From: Candidatus Mycoplasma haematolamae str. Purdue
GTDB taxonomy: Bacteria > Bacillota_I > Bacilli_A > Mycoplasmatales > Mycoplasmoidaceae
Assembly (NCBI GenBank): GCA_000281235.1
Contig: CP003731.1
Span: forward strand, 199,500-223,499
DNA: 24,000 nt
Reading direction: 5' to 3'
A program made the position numbers and the translations under genes. The notes below the pieces were generated by a model, which did not search any database, was not told where the DNA came from, and saw only the letters and a list, made by a program, of their open reading frames with translations. Position 1 is the first letter of the stretch; each line of letters begins with the position of its first letter. Below are positions 4,948 through 24,000 of this stretch, piece after piece.

Positions 4948-5151
4948 ATGGGTAGTCGTTTAGATAGAGTTACAGGAAGAGCATCTATTACAGGTAATAA
5001 TCGTTCGAAAGCAATGAACGCTACCAAGAGAGCCTGAAATTTGAATATTCAAAACTTTCAACTAGTGTGTGCTCAAACAGGCCTTCCTTTTAGGGTTAGG
5101 ACCTCTGTAAAGACAGTTCGAACCTGAAAGAAACAGGGAAAGATTAAGTAG
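4948..5151 (+). CDS. rpmB: 50S ribosomal protein L28
   Basis: MGSRLDRVTGRASITGNNRSKAMNATKRAW*NLNIQ..VRTSVKTVRTW*KKQGKIK (W* = TGA). Matches the L28 pattern TG..(x)GNNxSxAxNxTKRxW. Missed by the track because of two in-frame TGA. TAG stop 5149-5151. Confidence 0.9.
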
Positions 5152-5811: not shown

Positions 5812-6732
5812 TTGGGCAATTTCCTCAGAGCGTTAAAGGTAGTATCCAATCTAGAGAAGATAGATCCTAATTCACCTATAGTTTTTTGCTTTTTACGAAT
5901 AGAAACTACAGGAACTGACTTAAGTAATGATGAGCTCTTAGAAATAGCTTTAGTTAAGTATTCAGCAGGTAAAGAAATAGATAGGTATCACAGTTACGTA
6001 AGGTCTATAAAAGACTTAAGTGATGAAGTTGTCGCCAGTATAGGTCTAGATCCTAAGAAGTGATCGAAGTACGCAAGAGACAAGCACTCAGTCTTAGAAG
6101 AAGTTAAGAATTTTTTCGGCAACAGTGTCTTGGTGGGTCATAATTCCCATCAGTTTGAGCTTCCCTTTCTGAATTCTGAGTATCTAAAACTAGAGAAGCC
6201 AGGACTGGAACTAGCTGTATTAGATACTCTTCTACTATCTAAAGCTTTAGAGGGAGGGAGAGAACTAGAAAACTTTGAACTCTCTTCTCTAGTCAAGAAG
6301 CTAGAGATAAGCGTTTGAAAGCTTAATAATGCTCCTGCAGAGCTCTACCTAAAGAACCTAATCAAACTCTGAAAGGTCTGAGAGTCTCAGTTAAGGTATT
6401 TAGAACTTGATCCTTATTCGTTAGAGTCTCTGAAGATCTTTAATACTTTTTCACTAAAAGGAGAGTTACTTAGGCAATTTAGGAGGACCTTTAAGAAGAT
6501 ACCTATCTTGTTTCTCTACTTTGAATCAGAAGACTTAATCAGAGGGTTACTTTCCTATAGATTCTGTCCCTTACTTACCTTAAAATGAAGGAAATCTATC
6601 CTGAGTAAGAGGGTCTTAAAACTCAGTAAATCTAAAGGAGACTATGATTTGAGGAAAATTCAACCTAAGTTAAGCTTTAAAGACAATTTTGCTATCCTAG
6701 ATATACCTTTTAAGGACCTAAACAACCAATAA
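5812..6732 (+). CDS. PolC-exonuclease-like protein, paralog 1 (306 aa), DEDDh catalytic residues substituted
   Basis: Track fragments 5812 and 6130 share a frame and join through TGA 6061 and 6316, plus later TGAs, to TAA 6730-6732. Strong similarity to the polC exonuclease segment at 9263-9960: KYSAGKEIDRYHSYV vs [25 protein letters not shown] vs [17 protein letters not shown] vs KIWKVWE, LDPY. Motifs read LRIETTG, GHNSHQFELPFL, NNAPAE instead of [25 protein letters not shown]. Confidence 0.75.
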
Positions 6733-6734
6733 AT

Positions 6735-7370
6735 ATGGCTGCAGAGGTAATTACTTCGCTAGAAAACCTTAATCTAAGTCAACCTGTTGTTTTTTGTATT
6801 GTTGACCTAGAAACTACAGGATTAGATCCCTATAAAGATGAGATAATAGAAATCTACATTCTTAAGTATCGGCAGTGAGGTCAGTTGGAGTGTTTTCACA
6901 GTTTTGTTAAGTGTCAAGGAGGGGTTAGTGAGCGCATTACCAAGATAAATGGGATTACCCAAGAGAAGTTAGATAAGGAAGGTAGAGAGCCTGCTGAGGT
7001 ATATGCAGAAGTTAGAGAGTTTTTGGTTGACACGGTTTTGATTGCCCACAACGGCAAGAGGTTTGACTTTCCCTTCCTGGAGGAGTCATTTAAGAAGGCA
7101 GGCATAGAACCTCCTACAAGTCCTCAGTTGGATTCAATGTTGTTGGCTAAGTATCTCATGCCTGGACTTAAATCCTATGCATTAGAAGCTCTATTGGAAG
7201 AGAACAACATTACCTACGAACGAAGAGAGCTTCACTCAGCTAGATATGATGCTTCTTGTCTAGCTAAGCTGTGAAAAGACTGAGAACAGAGGCTTATCAA
7301 TACAGGCTTAGATCCTTTTCTTGCAGAAGACCTTAAAAATTTGAACGAACACCTAGAAGAAAACTTTTAG
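6735..7370 (+). CDS. PolC/DnaQ-type DEDDh 3'-5' exonuclease, paralog 2 (211 aa), catalytic motifs intact
   Basis: ATG 6735, in-frame TGA at 6876, 7272, 7281, TAG 7368-7370. Exo I VDLETTG, Exo II AHNGKRFDFPFL, Exo III HSARYDA. C-terminal LAKLW*KDW*EQRLINTGLDPF matches the PolC linker. Confidence 0.8.
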
Positions 7371-12478: not shown

Positions 12479-13029
12479 CTCTTTAGGTGAGAAATTAACT
12501 GATCAAGTACAGGAACTAAGTCAAAAACATAGGGATAGGTAATCGATAGTTCAAAGGCCTTTACCTTTTTAAACTCCTCTAGGCTAAAGATTTTTCTCTT
12601 CTTTTCCGACCTCAACTTAAGTAATTGGGAGTAACTTATCAATCAAAAGGAACTTTCCTTGTGAAGAAAGTGAATTAGGAGAAGAGAGATTCCTCCACAA
12701 GAGCTAATCTCTTCCAGTTGGGTCCACTGATGCTCCTTTAACAGAGATAAGCAAAATTCCTGTCTCTTAGTTTCTTTGAGTTCGATCCCAAAATACTTTC
12801 CTTTGTAGACACCATAGTAGTCTAGGTCTCCTTTAGAAATAAGTCGAATCCTAAAGCTATCTTCATCTAGCATAGAAAGAGACGACCTACCCCTCTTGGA
12901 AACGTGACTATATTCTGGATTCGACTTTCTAAAGTAGGCAATACCGTTACTCCTGTAATACTCTGAGGTATTCAACATCAATTGCTCTACTATAGAACCT
13001 CGATTATTGTGAGTGATGTATCTCCCCAT
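12475..13029 (-). CDS. recU: Holliday junction resolvase RecU
   Basis: NRGSIVEQLMLNTSEYY.., catalytic region DLDYYGVYKGKYFGIELKETK, then EHQW. Track ORF 12643-13029 extends through TGA (complement of 12643-12645) to TAA (complement of 12475-12477). Confidence 0.85.
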
Positions 13030-13068: not shown

Positions 13069-13992
13069 TTACTCCTCTCTTTCTTTAGTGAAGGCCCACA
13101 GTTTAGCGCTTCTAGAGGCTCAATTAAGCTCTATTTCTTGTCTAGTAGGCAAAATCACTCCCCCAACCCTTAAGGAAAATAAGGGAGATAAGACCAAACC
13201 TAAATCTGGGATCTTCAGAGTTTGGCCTACCTTCTTCTTTCAGTCAAGGAGTAGCTCATCTTCGAGGGATTGAAAGGTTATGACTAAGAGTCGACCTCCA
13301 GAAACAAGCAATTTAGAGGCTTTTTCTAGCGCTCTTGAGAAATTGTTAAGCTCGTTGTTACATTCAATCCTTAGTGCTTGAAATATGAGCTTTAAGGGAT
13401 TTTTGTTCCTTCTAGGGCTAAAGATCTTTGAGCCTTCTACCAGTTCTTTGAGCTGCTGAACATTGACTATTGGTTCTTTCTTTCTAGAGAGGACTAATAG
13501 AGAAGCTAATTGTCTGTGCTCCCTTATCTGACCGTAATTTCTAAAGATAGAACTTAGTTTGCCTTCAGAGTACTCATTAAGTATTTCGTAGACACTAGTT
13601 CCCTCGAGACCGTATTTCAGTTCCAAAGTAGATGAAGCATTGTTGTAGCTGAAACTCCTTTTAGGATCTCCTAGTTGGGCTGTTGAAAAACCTAAGTCGA
13701 AGAGGATCCCATCTGCTTTAGGTAATCCATTAGAGCTGATGTAGGAAGAAAGATTCGTGTAATTAGTGTTGAGGTATGTAAACCTAGAATCTTGCTTTTC
13801 TAACTCCCGTCCTGTTTCAACAGTCATAGGATCGATGTCAATTCCTAAGACCTTAGAGTCCGAGTCTAGGTGTCGTAAAAGCTCTTTAGTGTGACCACCT
13901 TCGCCAAAAGTACAGTCTACATAGAAGCCAGAAGGATTAGTGATTCAGTTTTCTATGACTTCTTTTAGTAGAACAGGAATATGTTTAATCAC
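13069..13992 (-). CDS. rsmH: 16S rRNA (cytosine1402-N4)-methyltransferase RsmH/MraW
   Basis: GTG start (complement of 13990-13992) gives VIKHIPVLLKEVIENW*ITNPSGFYVDCTFGEGGHTKELL..GIDIDP..DGILFDLGFSTAQLGDPKRSFSY..; C-terminus ..SRSAKLWAF. Track ORF 13240-13827 extends in both directions through TGA. Confidence 0.9.
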
Positions 13993-16308: not shown

Positions 16309-18771
16309 ATGTCTGATCTGGTAGCAACAGAACTTTTTTCTAATTCTTTACCTCTATTAATCTCCAGAAACTTAGTTGTTTTTCCCAACTCAAAGAACAT
16401 CATCGAGATAGGTAGAGAATGCTCACTAGCTTCTATCAAGTGTTCTATTTCTGACTACAAGGGAGAAATAGTGGTAGTTGCTCAAAAGGATTATGATGTT
16501 GACTTTCCTCTACCTTCTGATCTATATAAGGTAGGTACTCTTTGCAAGGTAACTGTCCTTAAGCAAAACAAAGATGAATCTTTAACAGTAGAGGTAGAAG
16601 GATTTCAAAGGGTCAAGGTATCTAGCGTCAAATTAGTTAAGTTAGCAGGTCAAGAAGAGTTAGGTCAAATGTGAATTTCTGAATACGAACTACTTAAGGA
16701 AAAAAACACTTCACTTGTAAAGAACAGGGCAGATATAGACCAACTGTTTAAGTACTTTGAAGAACTATTTGAGGTAGAGGGAGAGGACTATACAGAACTA
16801 AAGAAACTCTTTTCTACAGATGAAGCAGGAAAAGGTTCGGACCTCGACTCTTGTTCTGTTCTAATTGACAAACTGTGCAGCATTTGACCTCAAAACGAAA
16901 AAGATGGTGTAGATGTCAAGCAAAAGTGATTAGAGGAGTTGAACTTAACAAAGAGAATCTCCCTAATGCTTGACTATGAATATCTATCTGAAGCTGAAAA
17001 AGATGAGATTAACAGCTCTATTACCAAGAAGGTCAACAAAAACATATCTAAACAACAAAGAGAGTTCTACCTAAGAGAAAGGATTAAGGTAATCAAGGAA
17101 GAGTTAGGAGAGAGTGTTACTCGAGATGGAGAACTTCAGAAATTTAAGGAATGACTAAAGAAGGAAAAAGCTCCTGAGCACATAAGAAATAGGGTTCAAG
17201 AAGAGGTAAAGAAGCTGGAGTATTCTGGTTCTATTTCTACCAATGAATCTCTGATCATTCACAACTACCTAAATTGGATCATCTCTCTTCCCTGATCTAA
17301 GAGCTCAAAAGACCAAAAGAATGTCTGAAAGGTCAAGGAAGAACTAAATAAGAATCACTTTGGACTTGAGAAGGTTAAGGAGAGAATCTTAGAACATGTC
17401 TCTGTACAGAAGAGAACTAAGAATCCTCAGGGAACAATCATCTGTCTAGTAGGTCCCCCTGGAGTAGGTAAAACCTCTTTGGCTCAATCAATTGCTAAAG
17501 GTCTGAATAAGGTATGCATAAAGATCTCCCTAGGAGGTATGAGCGATGAAGCTGAGATTAGAGGACACAGACGTACCTATGTAGGGTCTTTGCCAGGAAA
17601 GATCATTCAGTCTCTAAAGAAAGCTAAGGTCAATAATCCTGTAATTCTCCTGGACGAGATAGATAAGGTAGCTAGTCACAGACACGGAGATCCCTTCTCA
17701 GCTTTACTGGAGGTTCTCGATCCTAAGCAAAATAAGCAATTCTCTGACAACTATATAGAGGAAGAAGTAGACCTGTCCAAGATCATGTTTATAGCTACAG
17801 CTAACTATGAGGAAGAGATACCTGATGCTCTGTCAGACAGACTAGAGATGATTCGTCTAAGCTCCTACACAGAAAAGGAAAAGTTAGAGATAGCTAGAAA
17901 TAGCTTGGTAGCTGAAGTTCTTGCAGAGAATGGACTTAAGCCAGAGGAGTTAGTTTTTGATGAAGATTCACTTAGATACATCATTCAGAGATACACTAGA
18001 GAACCTGGAGTAAGAGCATTAAAACAGGTTATAGCTAGGATAGCTAGAAAGTTTGTGATGAAGCAAGAGGAAAATAAGGATTTAACTGCAGAAGTCTTAA
18101 ATGAGGAAAAGATACGAGGCTATCTAGGTAAGGAAGACTTTGATGTAACCATTAAAGACACAACACCTGTACCTGGAAGAGTGAATGGTATGGCCTACAC
18201 AGCTTCAGGAGGTGACCTTCTTCCTGTGGAGGTCAATATCTTCCCTGCAGGAAAAGGAGAACTTTCTAGAACAGGGAACCTAAAAGAGACAATAGTTGAG
18301 TCTGTAGAGGTAGCTAAGAACTATATAAGAAAGAATTCAGAGGCTTTCAACCTAAAAGACATTAAGTGAACAGACTTAGATATTCACCTTCACGTACCTC
18401 AAGGGGGAGTGCCCAAAGATGGACCCTCTGCAGGAGTAACAATAGCTACAGCTTTACTCTCTGAGTTACTTCAAATCTCTATTCCTTCCGAAGTAGCTAT
18501 GACAGGAGAAATTACCACTAAAGGGATAGTAGAGCCTATAGGAGGACTGAAAGAAAAGATCCTTTCGGCTGTTCGAGGAGGAGTAAATACTGTTTTCTTC
18601 CCTAAGAAGAATGAAAAGGACCTAGAGGATATTCCTAAAGATGTGTTGGAAAAGATAACTCTGAAGCCTGTAGAGTACTACACAGAGATCTTTGATGAAC
18701 TCTTTGCTTCCAAGTTGATCATCTCTTCTGCAGGGACTAACCCTAAAGTGGCTAACAATCAGTATTCCTAA
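16309..18771 (+). CDS. lon: ATP-dependent Lon protease (820 aa)
   Basis: Four track fragments (16309, 16939, 17479, 18409) share one frame and join through TGA. Walker A GPPGVGKTSLAQSIA, Walker B VILLDEIDK, YLNWIISLPW*S, catalytic PKDGPSAGVTIATAL and MTGEITTKGIVEPIGGLKEK. Confidence 0.95.
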
Positions 18772-18857
18772 AAAACTTTCTAGGTAATGAGAGAAAAGAG
18801 AGAGGACTAATTAGCGCTTTAAGCTCTTAAAAAACCTTTAATTACCATTAAGTCGTA

Positions 18858-19430
18858 GTGTTAGGTTTCAAAGAAGTTGCAATAGCTGTTGCAGCTACTG
18901 GAGCAGCAGGTAGTACTGTTGCGACTGCAGTTGCTTTGAATTCCAATCAGGATGTAGGTGTTTCAACTAAATCTGTTACCAACCCCAAATCGGAAGAATC
19001 TTTACTTTGAAAAAAGGAAGAAAAGCCAAGTTCACCTAAAGAATCTGATAAACGCATAACTACTTTCAAGGTTTCTAAGGAAATGGGCTATGGCACTTGA
19101 ACCAGAGAACTTACCTGTAAAGCAGATAAAGATAGATATCCAACCTTACTTCTTTGAAATCATGATAGGCAAGAAGTAATTCTTTTCTGTAATAGTTCCT
19201 TTCGAGAAACCAAGGACTTTCAACTAAACGAATCAGGTGTTAATGTGACTTGCAAAAAATCTGAAGGCTCAGGAGATTATTCATCAGAGTTCAATTGCGA
19301 AGTAGTTAGTCCCAAGATTTGGACTGTAAGATCAGATTATAGAAATGGTTTAGCTTTGATCTTTAAGTTAAAAAAGAGCAGATATCTTACTCATATCGGA
19401 GAGGACATAATCCATGATGATTGGCTATAA
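18858..19430 (+). CDS. family member Z: small membrane-anchored or secreted protein with a Gly/Ala-rich hydrophobic leader and a 4-Cys domain (190 aa)
   Basis: GTG 18858 is the first start after TAA 18849. MLGFKEVAIAVAATGAAGSTVATAVALNSN.. Three in-frame TGAs (19008, 19098, 19155) link it to track ORF 19245-19430. The leader is near-colinear with that of the gene at 23750 (MIFKELAIGVLGLGAVGGTVTTVTLSNSS). Confidence 0.7.
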
Positions 19431-19549
19431 ACGACTGTTAATTTAGATCCCTTACACTACAAAAACCTTTAATTTCAGCCAAGAAGAAGACCTAACAGTA
19501 AAGCAGGATACTCGCTCTCTTAGAGTCTCCTTAGTAAGAGGAGATTGAG

Positions 19550-19962
19550 GGAGAATGTAAGCCATATTCTGTTTCTACCTAATAGCAGTAGAAGTGAGTA
19601 ATTAATCTAACCTAGTTACCTAGATTTTTAAGTTCTGTTGGAATTCCAAAACTTAAAGTCCCTTACCATTATTTAGGTTTCTTGCTTGAGGGGTTTACCG
19701 CGTTTCACTCTCTTTATTTCTAAAGAGCTCGTCTCTGTGGCACCTTAAAGAAAATAGCATCATATAAGGAGGTTAGTCCTTACTTAGAAGTATTTTCTGC
19801 CATCAACTAGTTTCCTAGCCGTTGAGTTTTATTTTTTATGTACTCACACAAACACTATAGTCATCTCAGACTATGCAAGTATGGACTTTCCTCTACCTTA
19901 GAAAGACCTTTTTCTAGAAGAATCTATTCCTTCTAAAGCAGCTACTCACTCTCTCCCTCAAA
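19550..19962 (-). ncRNA. rnpB: RNase P RNA, type B (Bacillus/Mollicutes type); ends approximate (+/-15 nt)
   Basis: The minus strand reads GUAGAGGAAAGUCCAUACUUGCAUAGUCUGAGAUGACUAUAGUGUUUGUG.., ..GGUGCCACAGAGACGAGCUCUUUAGAAAUAAAGAGAGUGAAACGCGGUAAACCCCUCAAGCAAGAAACCUAAAUAAUGGUAAGGGA.., ..ACAGAAUAUGGCUUACA. It is nearly colinear with B. subtilis RNase P RNA as I recall it. A P1 helix is possible between UGAGGGAGA (5') and UCUCCCUCA (3'). Confidence 0.9.
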
Positions 19963-20129
19963 CATCACTAAGGGATGTAAAGAGTATCCCAATTTAATTT
20001 AAGTAACTGCTAAGAAAAGAAGCCTAAAAGGACTCCTTGTTTGTATGTGTAAAAATTAGATTTTAAATCTCTGCAGAAATACTGGCAAATAATCTCGATT
20101 TAAGTCGTTCAATCCTCTAACTTAGCATC

Positions 20130-20464
20130 ATGTTTAGCTTCTTTAAGTCCCTTTCTTGTGTAGTTGCTGGAGGAACTACACTCGGAGGAGGTGCTTACGG
20201 CACCTACAGAGCTCTTAATGTTGGGGGGGGCACTCTACAGAAAGAATAAAAGTGACTAATTATTCTGCTTCTGGTTTAACTGACCATAAACCTCATAGCA
20301 CTGGATTAGCGGGTTGCACTCGTTGCAATGATGAAGAAGACCATGAAATGCAGTGTGAGCTCAATAGAGATGGAGCTAGACTTGAGTGTGGCTACGTTTG
20401 TCCCTTCACCAATGCTGAGAACAATATCAATGCTGTGTATGCGAGACAAAGAGGTTCTTCATAA
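20130..20464 (+). CDS. family member A: leader ORF (20130-20249) and 6-Cys body (frame of 20231, to TAA 20462-20464) separated by a frameshift at a G8 tract; candidate phase-variable gene, OFF as sequenced
   Basis: MFSFFKSLSCVVAGGTTLGGGAYGTYRALNVGGG then TAA after 6 more codons. The body ..HSTERIKVTNYSASGLTDHKPHSTGLAGCTRCNDEEDHEMQCELNRDGARLECGYVCPF.. is open in the next frame, starting right after the tract. Confidence 0.6.
20223..20230 (+). repeat. homopolymeric G8 tract at codon 32 of family member A
   Basis: ttGGGGGGGGcac counted directly in the sequence. Confidence 0.95.
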
Positions 20465-20831
20465 TGTCTCTTTCTGTAGGTTTTTTAAAGGTACTTGTCC
20501 CTACTGCTCTAGTGGGCTCTGCAGTAGGCTTCGGGATCTACACAATTAACGGTTCTGGGGGGGGCAAATAGTTAAAGCGAAACGGTATCAGCGTCAACAA
20601 GGTAGTACAGACTCTTTTCAAGTAGACGGCGAAGTTACGATAGTTGTTCCTAGATATTATGTTCAGTATGAAAGTGAATATCTAGGAAAGAAAACAATCA
20701 CTTTCGAAGAGAGTACTGGCAAGACCTGTTGAAATTCTCGAATTAATGAAGAAACTGGAAAGGATTATGTCTTCAATTTGTCTGTAGGTACGAATTGGAC
20801 GGACTTTACTAAACTTCCTCGCTGTCAATAA
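20464..20831 (+). CDS. family member B: leader ORF (20464-20571) and body (frame of 20565, to TAA 20829-20831) separated by a frameshift at a G8 tract; candidate phase-variable gene, OFF as sequenced
   Basis: The ATG overlaps the stop of member A (TAATG 20462-20466). MSLSVGFLKVLVPTALVGSAVGFGIYTINGSGGGK* is followed in the next frame by QIVKAKRYQRQQGSTDSFQVDGEVTIVVPRYYVQYESEYLGKKTITFEESTGKTCW*NSRINEETGKDYVFNLSVGTNWTDFTKLPRCQ*. Confidence 0.6.
20557..20564 (+). repeat. homopolymeric G8 tract at codon 32 of family member B
   Basis: tctGGGGGGGGcaa counted directly in the sequence. Confidence 0.95.
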
Positions 20832-20842
20832 GGATACAATCT

Positions 20843-20859
20843 AGCCTCAAAGAGAGGCT
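20843..20859 (+). terminator. weak hairpin after family member B (AGCCTC-aaaga-GAGGCT), no U-tail
   Basis: 6-bp perfect stem 12 nt after the TAA of member B, followed by an A8 run (20866-20873) rather than a T-run. Confidence 0.2.
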
Positions 20860-20939
20860 GCATCGAAAAAAAAGAGAGGGCGAGTTAGAGAAACCTAACA
20901 CATTCACTTAGCTTGTCAGTTCTAGGTAATCGGTTGTTG

Positions 20940-20947
20940 CCCCCCCC
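20940..20947 (+). repeat. homopolymeric C8 tract in the 5' leader/intergenic region of family member C
   Basis: ttgCCCCCCCCagc counted directly. Lies 51 nt upstream of the TTG start at 20998, with an in-frame TAG (20959) between them. Confidence 0.95.
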
Positions 20948-20997
20948 AGCCACTTCTCTAGAAAGCGTGAACCGGCTCCACATGACTCTCATTAAGC

Positions 20998-22155
20998 TTG
21001 CTTCACCTAAAGACCAAATTAGCCCTTGTTGTTTTAGGTCTAGGAGGGGCCAATGGAGTTTCGATGCTGGTCTTCAAAGACGATCTTTTCCAGAACCTAA
21101 GAGGTACTGAATTAAAAGAACTATTTAGCAGTCTAGGTCCTTTTTCAGGCAATAATTCGTTAGATCTCAGGCAAACTACCAGAGAAAACTTAGGAACCTT
21201 AGGTGTCTCTAATCTCTCTTCTCCTGTTTTATCTCTTTATGCAGATGGTCAGTTAAATATAGGAAGTTTAGGCAATGCTTGAGGTTTTAAAGAACAAATA
21301 ACTAAATTTCAGGAGAGTAATTCCTCTCTAGAGGCTTCAAAACTTAAAGATGAAAAAGCGAGAAAGATTATTGGCCAGTTGTCAAAGTCAGATATCCAAC
21401 ACTTCTTAAAGGCTCTAGAGAAGATAGAGAGGTTTGCCAGAGGAGAAAACAACGTAGAAGCTTTAGATCAACAGGAGAGAAGGGTAGTTCTCAAGTACTA
21501 CAAGGTCTGATGTGAACTTAAGCAGATAGGTTTAGATATCACTGCTATCTTTTCTAAAGAGGGAGAAGTAGCTAAGCTGCAACAGAGAGATTCCTTTGAA
21601 GATTATGAGAGTCTCAAGAAAAAATTAAGTAAACTGGGCTGGGAGTGACCTAGTCTTAAGGTACTTGGTCTTCACAATAGATTTGTAGATGCTTCTAGAG
21701 ATTGAGGGTCTGTCAGGGACTGAGACTCCAATCAGTGAAGGGAATATTATGTTCGCGACTCCCATAATTGGGGATATGACCTCGAGTGAAGCAAGAATCC
21801 CTGGAAGGATTTTTTTGTAGATGAAGCTGAATGGAAGGTCTTTTGGAGGGAGAGATCTAAACTCAAAGAGAGGCTCTGAAGGGATTGGCACAACTCCAAA
21901 TCGGTGGTGTGATGAGACTATGGTTGCTTCAAGCCTGTTAATGGGGTTGAATTTTTTGAAGGTTGCTACGAGACTACCCAAAAGGAGTTAGCAGAGGTAA
22001 TTGATGGGGCCAATGCAAATATTGGTCTTCAAGTAGGGATGAAGACATTACTGTGAATGGGTTATCCCCTTCAAGGTAAGAGGGCAATAATTGCCTTAAA
22101 TGGAAGAAATGCTGCAACCTGAATAGAGTCTGGACTAGTTAACTTGAAGTCTTAG
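20998..22155 (+). CDS. family member C: 385-aa protein with Gly-rich hydrophobic leader, central helical region and Trp-rich C-terminal domain
   Basis: TTG 20998 MLHLKTKLALVVLGLGGANGVSMLVFKDDL.. Track ORF 20998-21282 extends through 13 in-frame TGAs with no TAA/TAG until TAG 22153-22155. Paralogous to member D (LDQQERRVVLKYYKVW vs LSLEERQAVMKVYEAW; EWSKNPWKDFFVDEAEWKVFWRERSKLK vs NWESNPWGKFFESENLWKSYWEERDFLK). Confidence 0.7.
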
Positions 22156-22158
22156 AGT

Positions 22159-23217
22159 CTGGTCTTTACTGCGAAGGCCCAGATAGGTGCTGCCCTAGTC
22201 GGTCTGGGGGGGGTAAACGCAGTTGCAGTCACTGCCTTTAAATCGCCCTTAAAGGACCTATTTTTTTCTGAGCCTCCTTCAGATCTAACTACCAGTTCTT
22301 ACCTAGAAGGAAAAAGACACACCTTAAGTCTCTCGACTTCATCTAGAGAAGGTTTAAAAGAAACGAAGATTGTTAGTGCTCTAGATAGCCCTAAATTAGC
22401 TCTAAAACAGGAAGTGCCTCCTGTTCAGTTAGGTGACTTAGCTGCTCCACTAGAAAACAGGGAGACTTTAAAGGCGCAAGTAGGTTCTTTTAAAGGAGCA
22501 TTAGACAGATCAGAAGCTATCTCTTCTATAGAGGAAGAAAGAGACGAAAAAGTGAAGAAGGCACAAGAGGTGCTTGAACAGTACAAGTCGCATTTTGACG
22601 AAGCTGTTAAGAAGGTTAAGGTCTATCTCTCTAAAGAACCTAACTCCAAATTAACCTCACTATCCCTAGAGGAGAGGCAGGCAGTAATGAAGGTTTATGA
22701 AGCTTGAGCATCTATCAAGACAGCAATTGCAACAGCTAACTCTAAATTGAAGAAATTAGGCGCTGATGTTCAAGAGGAGCAATCTTCTTGAAAAACAGAC
22801 TCTGAAGTTAGAAGTATGCTCAACAATATTCTGTGGACAACACAGGGAATTAAGTTTTTAGGGAATGTTCAGAAGTCAGGAGCTAATCGATCAAACAATT
22901 GGCACTACAGCATGAATTGAGAATCTAATCCTTGGGGTAAGTTCTTTGAGAGTGAAAATCTGTGAAAAAGTTACTGAGAAGAAAGAGATTTCCTTAAAAA
23001 TGAACTCTATTCTTTGTTTTCATTAAAAGAACAATGAAAGGATGGTAAGTGCAGCAAGGTGACGGGGGTTTCTTCAGAACAGAGAGAATTGTGTTTCGCC
23101 AGGGCAAGAGATACAAGTATCGGCATTTATTCTGAGGCAAATATCAAGATAGAATTGCATGTAGCTAAACAGGTTTTGTCTTGAATGGGCAAATTAGACG
23201 AGACTAAAGCTAAATAA
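22159..23217 (+). CDS. family member D: paralog of C with an in-frame G8 tract in the leader; no canonical start codon (CTG 22159 or ATA 22183 are the candidates)
   Basis: Same frame as member C and opens right after its TAG. SLVFTAKAQIGAALVGLGGVNAVAVTAFKSPLKDLFF.. includes track ORF 22414-22707, then continues through TGAs to TAA 23215-23217. Confidence 0.6.
22206..22213 (+). repeat. homopolymeric G8 tract encoding the GLGG motif of member D's leader (in frame as sequenced)
   Basis: ggtctGGGGGGGGtaaac counted directly. The homologous GLGG in member C is encoded by the interrupted ggt cta gga ggg. Confidence 0.95.
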
Positions 23218-23227
23218 AAATAGAGTC

Positions 23228-23250
23228 AGTAGGCCCTAAAGGGGTCTACT
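23228..23250 (+). terminator. imperfect hairpin between members D and E (AGTAGGCCC-taaa-GGGGTCTACT)
   Basis: 3 bp + 1-nt bulge + 6 bp (one G-U). Starts 11 nt after the TAA of D and ends 8 nt before the ATG of E. Only a short T-run follows. Confidence 0.25.
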
Positions 23251-23257
23251 CTTTGAA

Positions 23258-23749
23258 ATGACTAATGCAAGTGTGGGTCTCTGAATCCTTAAGTTAATGG
23301 CTGGAGGTGCTGCCTTTGGAGGAGGGTCTGCAGCTTTAGGATATTTCTCTGCCCTATTAGTAGATTTGAAGGAAGCTCCTCAAACTGATAAGGGATATCC
23401 TGATCCTGATTGAGGTAGAGAGGTTAACTACAAGATAAGAGTTTCTACTAAGGAAAAGAAAAATAAGGAAGCCTCTTTGGTTTGTGCAGGTCGATCTTGA
23501 TACTTTGCGAATCTTAAGGCAGAAGTAGATAAAGAAGGAGAGAGATTGAGACTACTCTGTGACTACTCCAAGAAGAAGACCAACAAATTAATTGAAGAAA
23601 TGAACCCCAAAAAACAAATTTTAACCTGCTCTATCAGGGATAGAGAACAAGGATTCAAAGAAGTCTTCTGCTTTTTACCTGAAAAAGAACTTACCATGGA
23701 TTCTTCCACTTTAAGGGAGAAGAGGCACCTTTTGATCTCCTGATCCTAG
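23258..23749 (+). CDS. family member E: 163-aa protein with Gly-rich leader and a 4-Cys domain
   Basis: ATG 23258 MTNASVGLW*ILKLMAGGAAFGGGSAALGYFSALLVDLKEAP.. In-frame TGAs join it to track ORF 23546-23743; TAG 23747-23749. Cys spacing 24/22/13 vs 23/20/14 in member Z. Confidence 0.7.
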
Positions 23750-24000
23750 ATGATTTTTAAGGAACTAGCAATAGGGGTCTTGGGCCTGGGAGCTGTTGGA
23801 GGCACCGTTACTACTGTAACCTTATCTAACTCAAGTACAGATGGTTCTGTGAGCACTCAGAAGAGGGTAGTTCAGGATCCTGAGTACTTCGGAAAGCCTA
23901 TTAACTATAAGATGACAGTCAATAAGGGCATAGGAGGAGAACAAAACCAGTATTTGAAATGCTCTGGCCTAGCTAATCACTTCGCCTTCTTTAGGGTTCA
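23750..24000 (+). CDS. family member F (3' end outside the window)
   Basis: The ATG directly abuts the TAG of member E (TAGATG). MIFKELAIGVLGLGAVGGTVTTVTLSNSSTDGSVSTQKRVVQDPEYFGKPINYKMTVNKGIGGEQNQYLKCSGLANHFAFFRV.. The leader matches member Z and the body matches member E (EVNYKIRVSTKEK..SLVCAGRSWYFANL). Confidence 0.7.
   Translation, partial: MIFKELAIGVLGLGAVGGTVTTVTLSNSSTDGSVSTQKRVVQDPEYFGKPINYKMTVNKGIGGEQNQYLKCSGLANHFAFFRV

Follow-up and report, generated by a model that had tools for sequence, protein, structure and literature searches.

In the present study, we examined two short adjacent reading frames, here called members A and B, in a stretch of 24,000 nucleotides (nt) of 'Candidatus Mycoplasma haemolamae' (haematolamae) str. 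Purdue (CP003731.1, positions 199,500-223,499, forward strand). The whole stretch is referred to as the window, and its own numbering is used for all features of this genome. Each of the two frames is interrupted by a run of eight guanines (G8), and the run in B is treated here as a putative on/off switch of expression. Genetic code 4, in which TGA is read as Trp, is clearly in use, since the open reading frames (ORFs) of at least 100 amino acids (aa) total 9341 aa with table 4 against 4303 aa with table 11, and Lon, like PolC and others, is split at TGA by table 11. Member B lies on the plus strand and starts at the ATG 20464-20466, with a GAGG 13 nt upstream. Its hydrophobic leader of 31 codons (20464-20556, MSLSVGFLKVLVPTALVGSAVGFGIYTINGS) is followed from codon 32, in phase 0, by the G8 tract GGGGGGGG at 20557-20564, which leaves it out of frame (hereafter OFF) with the downstream body. 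The current reading is GGG GGG GGC AAA TAG, in which the TAG at 20569-20571 closes the frame, and the product has 35 aa. The body frame (20565-20831, plus strand) occupies the -1 frame, with 88 codons and the TAA at 20829-20831, and is open under code 4 only, as it contains an in-frame TGA (Trp) at 20730-20732. Both G9 and G6 restore the frame and give 122 aa, so that a change of 1 nt toggles the product between truncated and full-length; the junction peptide of the restored frame is ..NGSGGGQIVKAK...

Member A, on the same strand, is built in the same way. Its ATG at 20130 opens a hydrophobic leader of 31 codons (20130-20222, MFSFFKSLSCVVAGGTTLGGGAYGTYRALNV), the G8 tract (20223-20230) again begins at codon 32 in phase 0 and is out of frame, and G9 or G6 restores the frame into a body of 77 codons plus TAA (20231-20464, with the stop at 20462-20464), with ..LNVGGGHSTER.. 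as the junction peptide. Ribosomes that translate A at G8 would terminate at 20247-20249, at a distance of 215 nt 5' of the ATG of B, and the stop of the A body shares one base with that ATG in the sequence TAATG (20462-20466, plus strand). In each member there is one lesion, and it is located exactly at the tract. When the sequence was re-read, it bore out every coordinate which an earlier note on this DNA had claimed for B (the ATG at 20464, the TAATG, the 31 codons, the G8 at 20557-20564 and the TAG at 20569). The claimed 88-codon frame from 20565 to the TAA at 20829, with 122 aa at G9, was confirmed under code 4, and the claimed identical layout of A and B (G8 at codon 32, OFF, one more G needed) agreed with the coordinates. 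The note had also called the two leaders dissimilar, and this was roughly right, yet 34 of their 93 nt are identical in an ungapped comparison against 24.8 +/- 4.1 in shuffles (P 0.018). The leaders of A and B have weak similarity in addition to their common architecture.

Two further 8-nt runs lie downstream. The first is a C8 tract (20940-20947, plus strand) in the intergenic region between B and gene C, 51 nt 5' of the TTG start of MHLP_01075 and outside its frame. Gene C is MHLP_01075 (20998-22155, plus strand, 385 aa, TTG start). It is 100% identical over its full length to the public protein, and it has a hydrophobic N-terminus and no tract of its own. Upstream of it, in the region 20913-21000, a TTG-started frame ends at a TAA 5 nt before the TTG of C when the tract is C9 or C6 and ends 39 nt upstream of the start of C with C7 or C10, while with C8 it overruns that start by 128 nt in another frame. 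On this basis the length of the C8 run could, speculatively, gate the translation of C. A reading of the C8 run on the minus strand was ruled out, as neither a hydrophobic leader nor an open body was present there. The second run belongs to gene D, which is MHLP_01080 (22159-23217, plus strand) and a paralogue of C over its full length, including the N-terminal hydrophobic segment. Within this segment lies the G8 tract of D (22206-22213, plus strand), which is in frame (ctg ggg ggg gta, LGGV), and the same site in C reads cta gga ggg gcc. The public model of D begins at GTG 22414, has 267 aa and omits about 85 N-terminal codons that align with C. The N-terminal part (22156-22413) has no ATG, GTG or TTG, and the sole start candidate is the CTG at 22159, directly after the stop of C. 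A profile search with C and D returned C and D only.

The runs are more numerous than would be expected by chance. The counts of G/C runs by length fall geometrically (6083, 1214, 241, 36, 7, 2, 0), length 6 being represented twice (C6 at 2505 and 10186) and length 7 not at all, and are then followed by four runs of exactly 8, so that the distribution is bimodal. Under a first-order Markov model, 0.076 runs of at least 8 nt are expected per 24 kb against the four observed (Poisson P ~1e-6). All four fall in 20223-22213, within 2 kb of hypothetical genes, and no G/C run of at least 8 nt was found in the 18.8 kb of housekeeping genes of the window. Codon preference points in the same direction. 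GGG is the rarest Gly codon, with 12% of the Gly codons in the window, and outside the tracts GGG-GGG encodes 0 of 28 Gly-Gly dipeptides, Gly-Gly-Gly being written as GGA-GGA-GGN. Because GGG is rare and GGG-GGG is not used elsewhere, the run is a feature selected at the level of nucleotides and does not follow from a Gly-rich peptide. As for the bodies, the chance that a non-coding frame stays open from a given point is about 0.04 for at least 77 codons and about 0.03 for at least 88 codons.

Similar tracts were found in the related hemoplasmas. The loci compared were the lon locus of M. wenyonii Massachusetts (CP003703.1, L003), that of M. ovis (CP006935.1, L004) and those of two wenyonii-like lineages (L005 and L007); a further locus, L008, is the same data as L007 (100% identical) and not an independent strain. 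Lon identity among the M. wenyonii lineages is just 83-91%. In the haemolamae (window 18772-24000), wenyonii and ovis lineages, an array of hypothetical genes separates lon from rplJ, and in these lon-linked arrays G/C runs of 7-9 nt stand 17-32 codons after the start. In M. wenyonii Massachusetts, tandem arrays of hypothetical genes flank a conserved housekeeping block on both sides, and 11 G/C runs of 7-9 nt occur in 13 kb of arrays against none in 9.4 kb of housekeeping DNA. Each of these 11 tracts follows a hydrophobic leader, at a distance of 20-31 codons from the start. The frame is continuous across the tract in three genes (C8 at 870, G8 at 13810 and G8 at 16379 of that locus). The other eight are OFF and have intact bodies, and their frame would be restored by +1 nt in five cases and by -1 nt in three. 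Five of the seven members of the family downstream of lon are OFF; after repair, their products comprise 194-198 aa and reach the conserved C-terminus ..F.PKVI(I/L) without interruption, and the other indels among the paralogues of this family are all multiples of three. At the homologous site of the M. wenyonii paralogues the tract length is 7, 8 or 9, and a tract-free paralogue of the Massachusetts locus carries the interrupted sequence GAAGGGAGA there.

G8 or C8 runs were also present in such genes of M. ovis and of the two wenyonii-like assemblies, and the tracts have been recovered by independent projects as well as in a Logan assembly. In those loci that have gene arrays, the housekeeping DNA is nearly free of such runs. 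Among the 16 genes scored (A, B, D and 13 of the relatives), all with the tract behind a hydrophobic leader of 15-31 codons, 4 are in frame (ON) and 12 are OFF, which is about one in four in frame. An orthologous OFF gene is shared by L005 and L007, with the G8 and the frame kept and a body of 76% nucleotide identity, a rate of synonymous substitution (dS) of 0.78 and a ratio of nonsynonymous to synonymous substitution (dN/dS) of 0.26, which means that a gene scored as OFF is under purifying selection. One minus-strand gene of the Massachusetts locus, at 5077, has, like A and B, a G8 that begins in phase 0 at codon 32, and its junction peptide LTLGGGQSDRLIEVTN resembles that of A, LNVGGGHSTERIKVTN, although the match is not significant. 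The earlier note had argued that equal tracts behind dissimilar leaders speak for selection rather than inheritance. This proved to be a false contrast, for the leaders of A and B are weakly similar and the M. wenyonii gene also has G8 at codon 32; inheritance with maintenance of the tract is equally possible. Outside these lineages, no gene array was found beside lon in M. suis, Ca. M. haemominutum, M. haemofelis or the hemoplasma of SRR27853839, and the lon regions of the first three contain 0-1 runs of at least 7 nt. Scans of metagenomes with gapped patterns around the B tract and around a wenyonii-like tract gave no match.

Since the tracts are confined to leader-bearing gene arrays, hold a fixed position, vary in length between 7, 8 and 9, are in frame in about one quarter of the genes and precede intact, constrained bodies, which is a pattern typical of simple-sequence contingency loci, we read B as probably being a phase-variable gene with a slipped-strand poly-G on/off switch, caught in the OFF state, as far as this can be judged from the sequence. 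In the proposed mechanism, B would consist of a hydrophobic leader, which may act as a signal peptide or membrane anchor, and an 88-residue orphan domain, and the length of the poly-G at the junction of leader and body would set its expression. Slipped-strand mispairing in replication would gain or lose a G. Mollicutes are without MutS/MutL mismatch repair, and this would favour slippage. At G8, presumably the majority state of the sequenced population, translation would end after 35 aa (OFF), and at G9 the 122-aa protein would be made (ON). The tract of B is one of four within 2 kb, the others being those of A and D and the C8 before C, and it is one instance of the device found in the lon-linked arrays of the three lineages. 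Independent switching of the genes of the array would lead to a population with mixed surface phenotypes. We infer actual slippage and its reversibility, and a role of the products in immune evasion may be supposed; their surface location is predicted from the hydrophobic leader alone. The view of the earlier note that the poly-G is a selected switch, now OFF, gains from the enrichment of the runs and the codon preference and is well supported by the comparison with relatives, in which the device recurs and the OFF pair has a low dN/dS; it loses from the orphan status of B and its intermediate codon score.

Several points weigh against this interpretation. The tract length in haemolamae is known from a single genome, A and B would both be restored by +1, a pattern that a systematic undercall of G9 would equally produce, and the sole orthologous comparison, L005 against L007, has an equal length, G8, in both. 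A and B are not in the public annotation or protein set and have no Pfam or NCBIfam match. Repaired B had no homologue in 5.8 billion proteins, itself included, and the first 55 residues of its body had no match among 1.84 billion representatives. The codon score, from a model trained on the housekeeping genes of the window, is 0.22 +/- 0.15 bits/codon for the paralogue genes and -0.25 +/- 0.15 for off-frames. With -0.003 (A) and -0.08 (B) bits/codon, the bodies give the best of six frames but fall between coding and off-frame, and because these values are intermediate a decay of A and B is possible. The leaders score 0.24 (A) and 0.23 (B) bits/codon, like real genes. The AlphaFold2 prediction of the A body is unconfident, with a predicted local distance difference test (pLDDT) value of 41. 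A profile of the M. wenyonii family gave no significant match among the window proteins, and a phmmer comparison of the window proteins with all ORFs of the related loci found weak leader or junction similarities only. Taken alone, A and B would be compatible both with young orphan genes and with genes in decay.

The alternative that survives best, although we consider it unlikely, is that A and B are decaying remnants which were inactivated at a homopolymer mutational hot spot and are no longer expressed. The missing annotation, the lack of a homologue of B, the intermediate codon scores of the bodies and the pLDDT of 41 are all in keeping with it, and a comparative-genomics paper has proposed that many paralogous hypothetical coding sequences of hemoplasmas may be unrecognised pseudogenes. 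On the other hand, the tract is the sole lesion in both members and both bodies are still open, the OFF copies in relatives are intact and under purifying selection, and an unselected G8 should erode in a genome with 39% GC in which GGG is the rarest Gly codon. We regard as still less probable that the G8 is a fixed recoding site, at which RNA polymerase slippage or -1 ribosomal frameshifting on G GGG GGG would give low constitutive expression and no switch. Such a site would suit the need of both members for exactly the -1 frame, the perfect slippery run with a stop 2-6 codons on, and the OFF gene of L005 and L007, which keeps its G8 and frame across a dS of 0.78 under purifying selection. 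No stimulatory RNA structure was found 3' of the tracts, however, the folding z being +0.56 for B and -1.38 for A against shuffles. Moreover, the frame relation is not conserved in M. wenyonii, where three genes require no shift, five require +1 nt and three -1 nt, so that one programmed shift cannot serve all of them. Recoding and phase variation are not mutually exclusive. The least probable explanation by our estimate is that the tracts are homopolymer miscalls of a true G9 in ordinary intact genes, for although A and B both need +1 and a single assembly is at hand, the G8 of D is in frame at 8, the relatives come from independent projects and show a mixture of 7-, 8- and 9-nt tracts, some ON and others OFF, and the sister genome from the same laboratory and year was sequenced by Illumina at >3400x with Sanger gap closure, the platform of the present genome being presumed from it. 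An 8-mer is well within Illumina accuracy.

Slipped-strand phase variation of B is preferred over these alternatives, and it may be asked how its tract relates to the other three. The earlier note had envisaged a two-tract switch in which the state of A also influences B, but the cluster holds four tracts (A, B, C8 and D). Translational coupling from A to B is plausible in view of the TAATG overlap, the single feature on which it is based; a Shine-Dalgarno sequence is absent from most genes of the window, and this scarcity neither supports nor refutes the coupling. In an extended model, the four tracts would form one hierarchical switch at the level of an operon, in which A gates B by termination-reinitiation at the TAATG, the C8 length sets the fate of the upstream TTG frame with respect to C, and D has its own in-frame G8. 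We find this model rather doubtful; if it is true, 2 kb of DNA would encode a structured set of surface states, and the leader-junction device, common to the haemolamae, wenyonii and ovis lineages, would provide the long-sought basis of cyclic bacteraemia in hemoplasmas.

Poly-G/C contingency loci are known from Campylobacter jejuni, Neisseria, Haemophilus and Helicobacter, where G/C homopolymers about 7-13 nt long occur at numerous loci of a genome and have a bimodal length distribution (PMC4965091, PMC2831843). The tracts described here share with the C. jejuni type the G/C homopolymer in the 5' part of the gene and the toggling of the frame by a change of one base. The C. jejuni-type loci lie in genes for surface-related functions. 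The present tracts, which are known from sequence alone, differ in that they are fixed at the end of the leader and lie in tandem arrays of hypothetical genes of a wall-less, AT-biased and uncultivable blood parasite. The opa genes of Neisseria carry CTCTT repeats in the region coding for the signal peptide, which turn translation on and off, and as each family member has its own repeat, expression is combinatorial. A repeat in the leader-coding part of each of several genes is common to opa and the present arrays, but a homopolymer takes the place of the pentanucleotide here, the proteins are unrelated (no Pfam match) and the host of opa is Gram-negative. Among Mollicutes, Vaa of Mycoplasma hominis and P78 of M. 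fermentans reportedly undergo reversible frameshifts in a poly-A of the 5' coding region. The likeness consists in a Mollicute host, a homopolymer near the 5' coding end (here at codon 32) and a frameshift, with a surface location that in our case is predicted from the leader. In contrast to these single lipoprotein or adhesin genes with poly-A, poly-G or poly-C is found here in several neighbouring genes, with no lipobox evident and no homology found, and poly-G/C tracts of this kind are unusual for AT-rich genomes.

For the C8 run, a different comparison is suitable. Treponema pallidum is said to have poly-G tracts upstream of its tpr genes, and the C8 run, 51 nt upstream of gene C, is likewise a G/C homopolymer preceding a gene that belongs to a paralogous family, in a blood-borne pathogen that cannot be cultivated. 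Homopolymers in promoter spacers are also known for vlp of M. hyorhinis and fim of Bordetella. The difference from tpr and from the promoter-spacer systems is that no promoter was recognised around C8, as a promoter scan gave no plus-strand promoter near A or near 20940-20947.

Hemoplasmas are uncultivable, the infections that they cause are chronic and marked by cyclic bacteraemia, and paralogous families account for a quarter to nearly three quarters of their genes. The genome papers have proposed phase or antigenic variation through families of paralogues, tandem repeats and type I restriction genes, and a survey of simple sequence repeats found G/C mononucleotide repeats to be more abundant in blood-dwelling mycoplasmas. 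In the hemoplasma genome literature we found no mechanism based on homopolymeric tracts, and the terms 'hemoplasma' and 'homopolymer' did not occur together in any of 8 million papers, with the limit that subscription journals may contain a prior description. The mechanism is of a known kind, and for the gene arrays of hemoplasmas it has apparently not been described before. The poly-G/C tracts at the junction of leader and body provide a concrete hypothesis for antigenic or phase variation in hemoplasmas which can be tested by PCR.

The tracts also matter for annotation in practice. The public record has no entry for A or B, and it gives D and several M. wenyonii genes in an N-terminally truncated form because the state of the tract was taken at face value. 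In the Massachusetts locus, the public gene calls at 12689, 15363, 17405, 18406 and 1450 start at or after the tract; the out-of-frame leaders had not been connected with their bodies, and for this reason the calls are truncated at the N-terminus. Many of the short paralogue fragments annotated in hemoplasmas are probably subject to this artefact.

With regard to the surroundings of the cluster, the order in the window is lon, the RNase P RNA gene and then the tracts. Lon (16309-18771) has its closest relatives in M. ovis and M. wenyonii, at 67-68% identity. The RNase P RNA is of class B (rnpB, 19553-19914, minus strand) and was recovered at full length with 219 bits. This gene explains the ORF-free gap 5' of member A, and the promoter of A must be confined to the divergent region of 215 nt at 19915-20129.

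Some separate observations were made in the related loci and in the rest of the window. In M. ovis, a type I restriction specificity (Methylase_S) gene at 639-1562 of its locus contains G8 runs at 995 and 1513, and the run at 1513 adjoins a small overlapping ORF, so that the gene is a candidate phase-variable hsdS. At 17540-17546 of the same locus, a C7 stands right after an ATG of a hypothetical gene which is inserted in the ribosomal-protein operon between rplW and rplB, and in Ca. M. haemominutum (L010) a G9 (16681-16689) is located close to the 3' end of the gene in that position. In the window itself, the ORF list contains two tandem exonuclease-like genes at 5812-7370, with a ..ETTG.. 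motif, whose stop-to-stop frames overlap by 19 nt.

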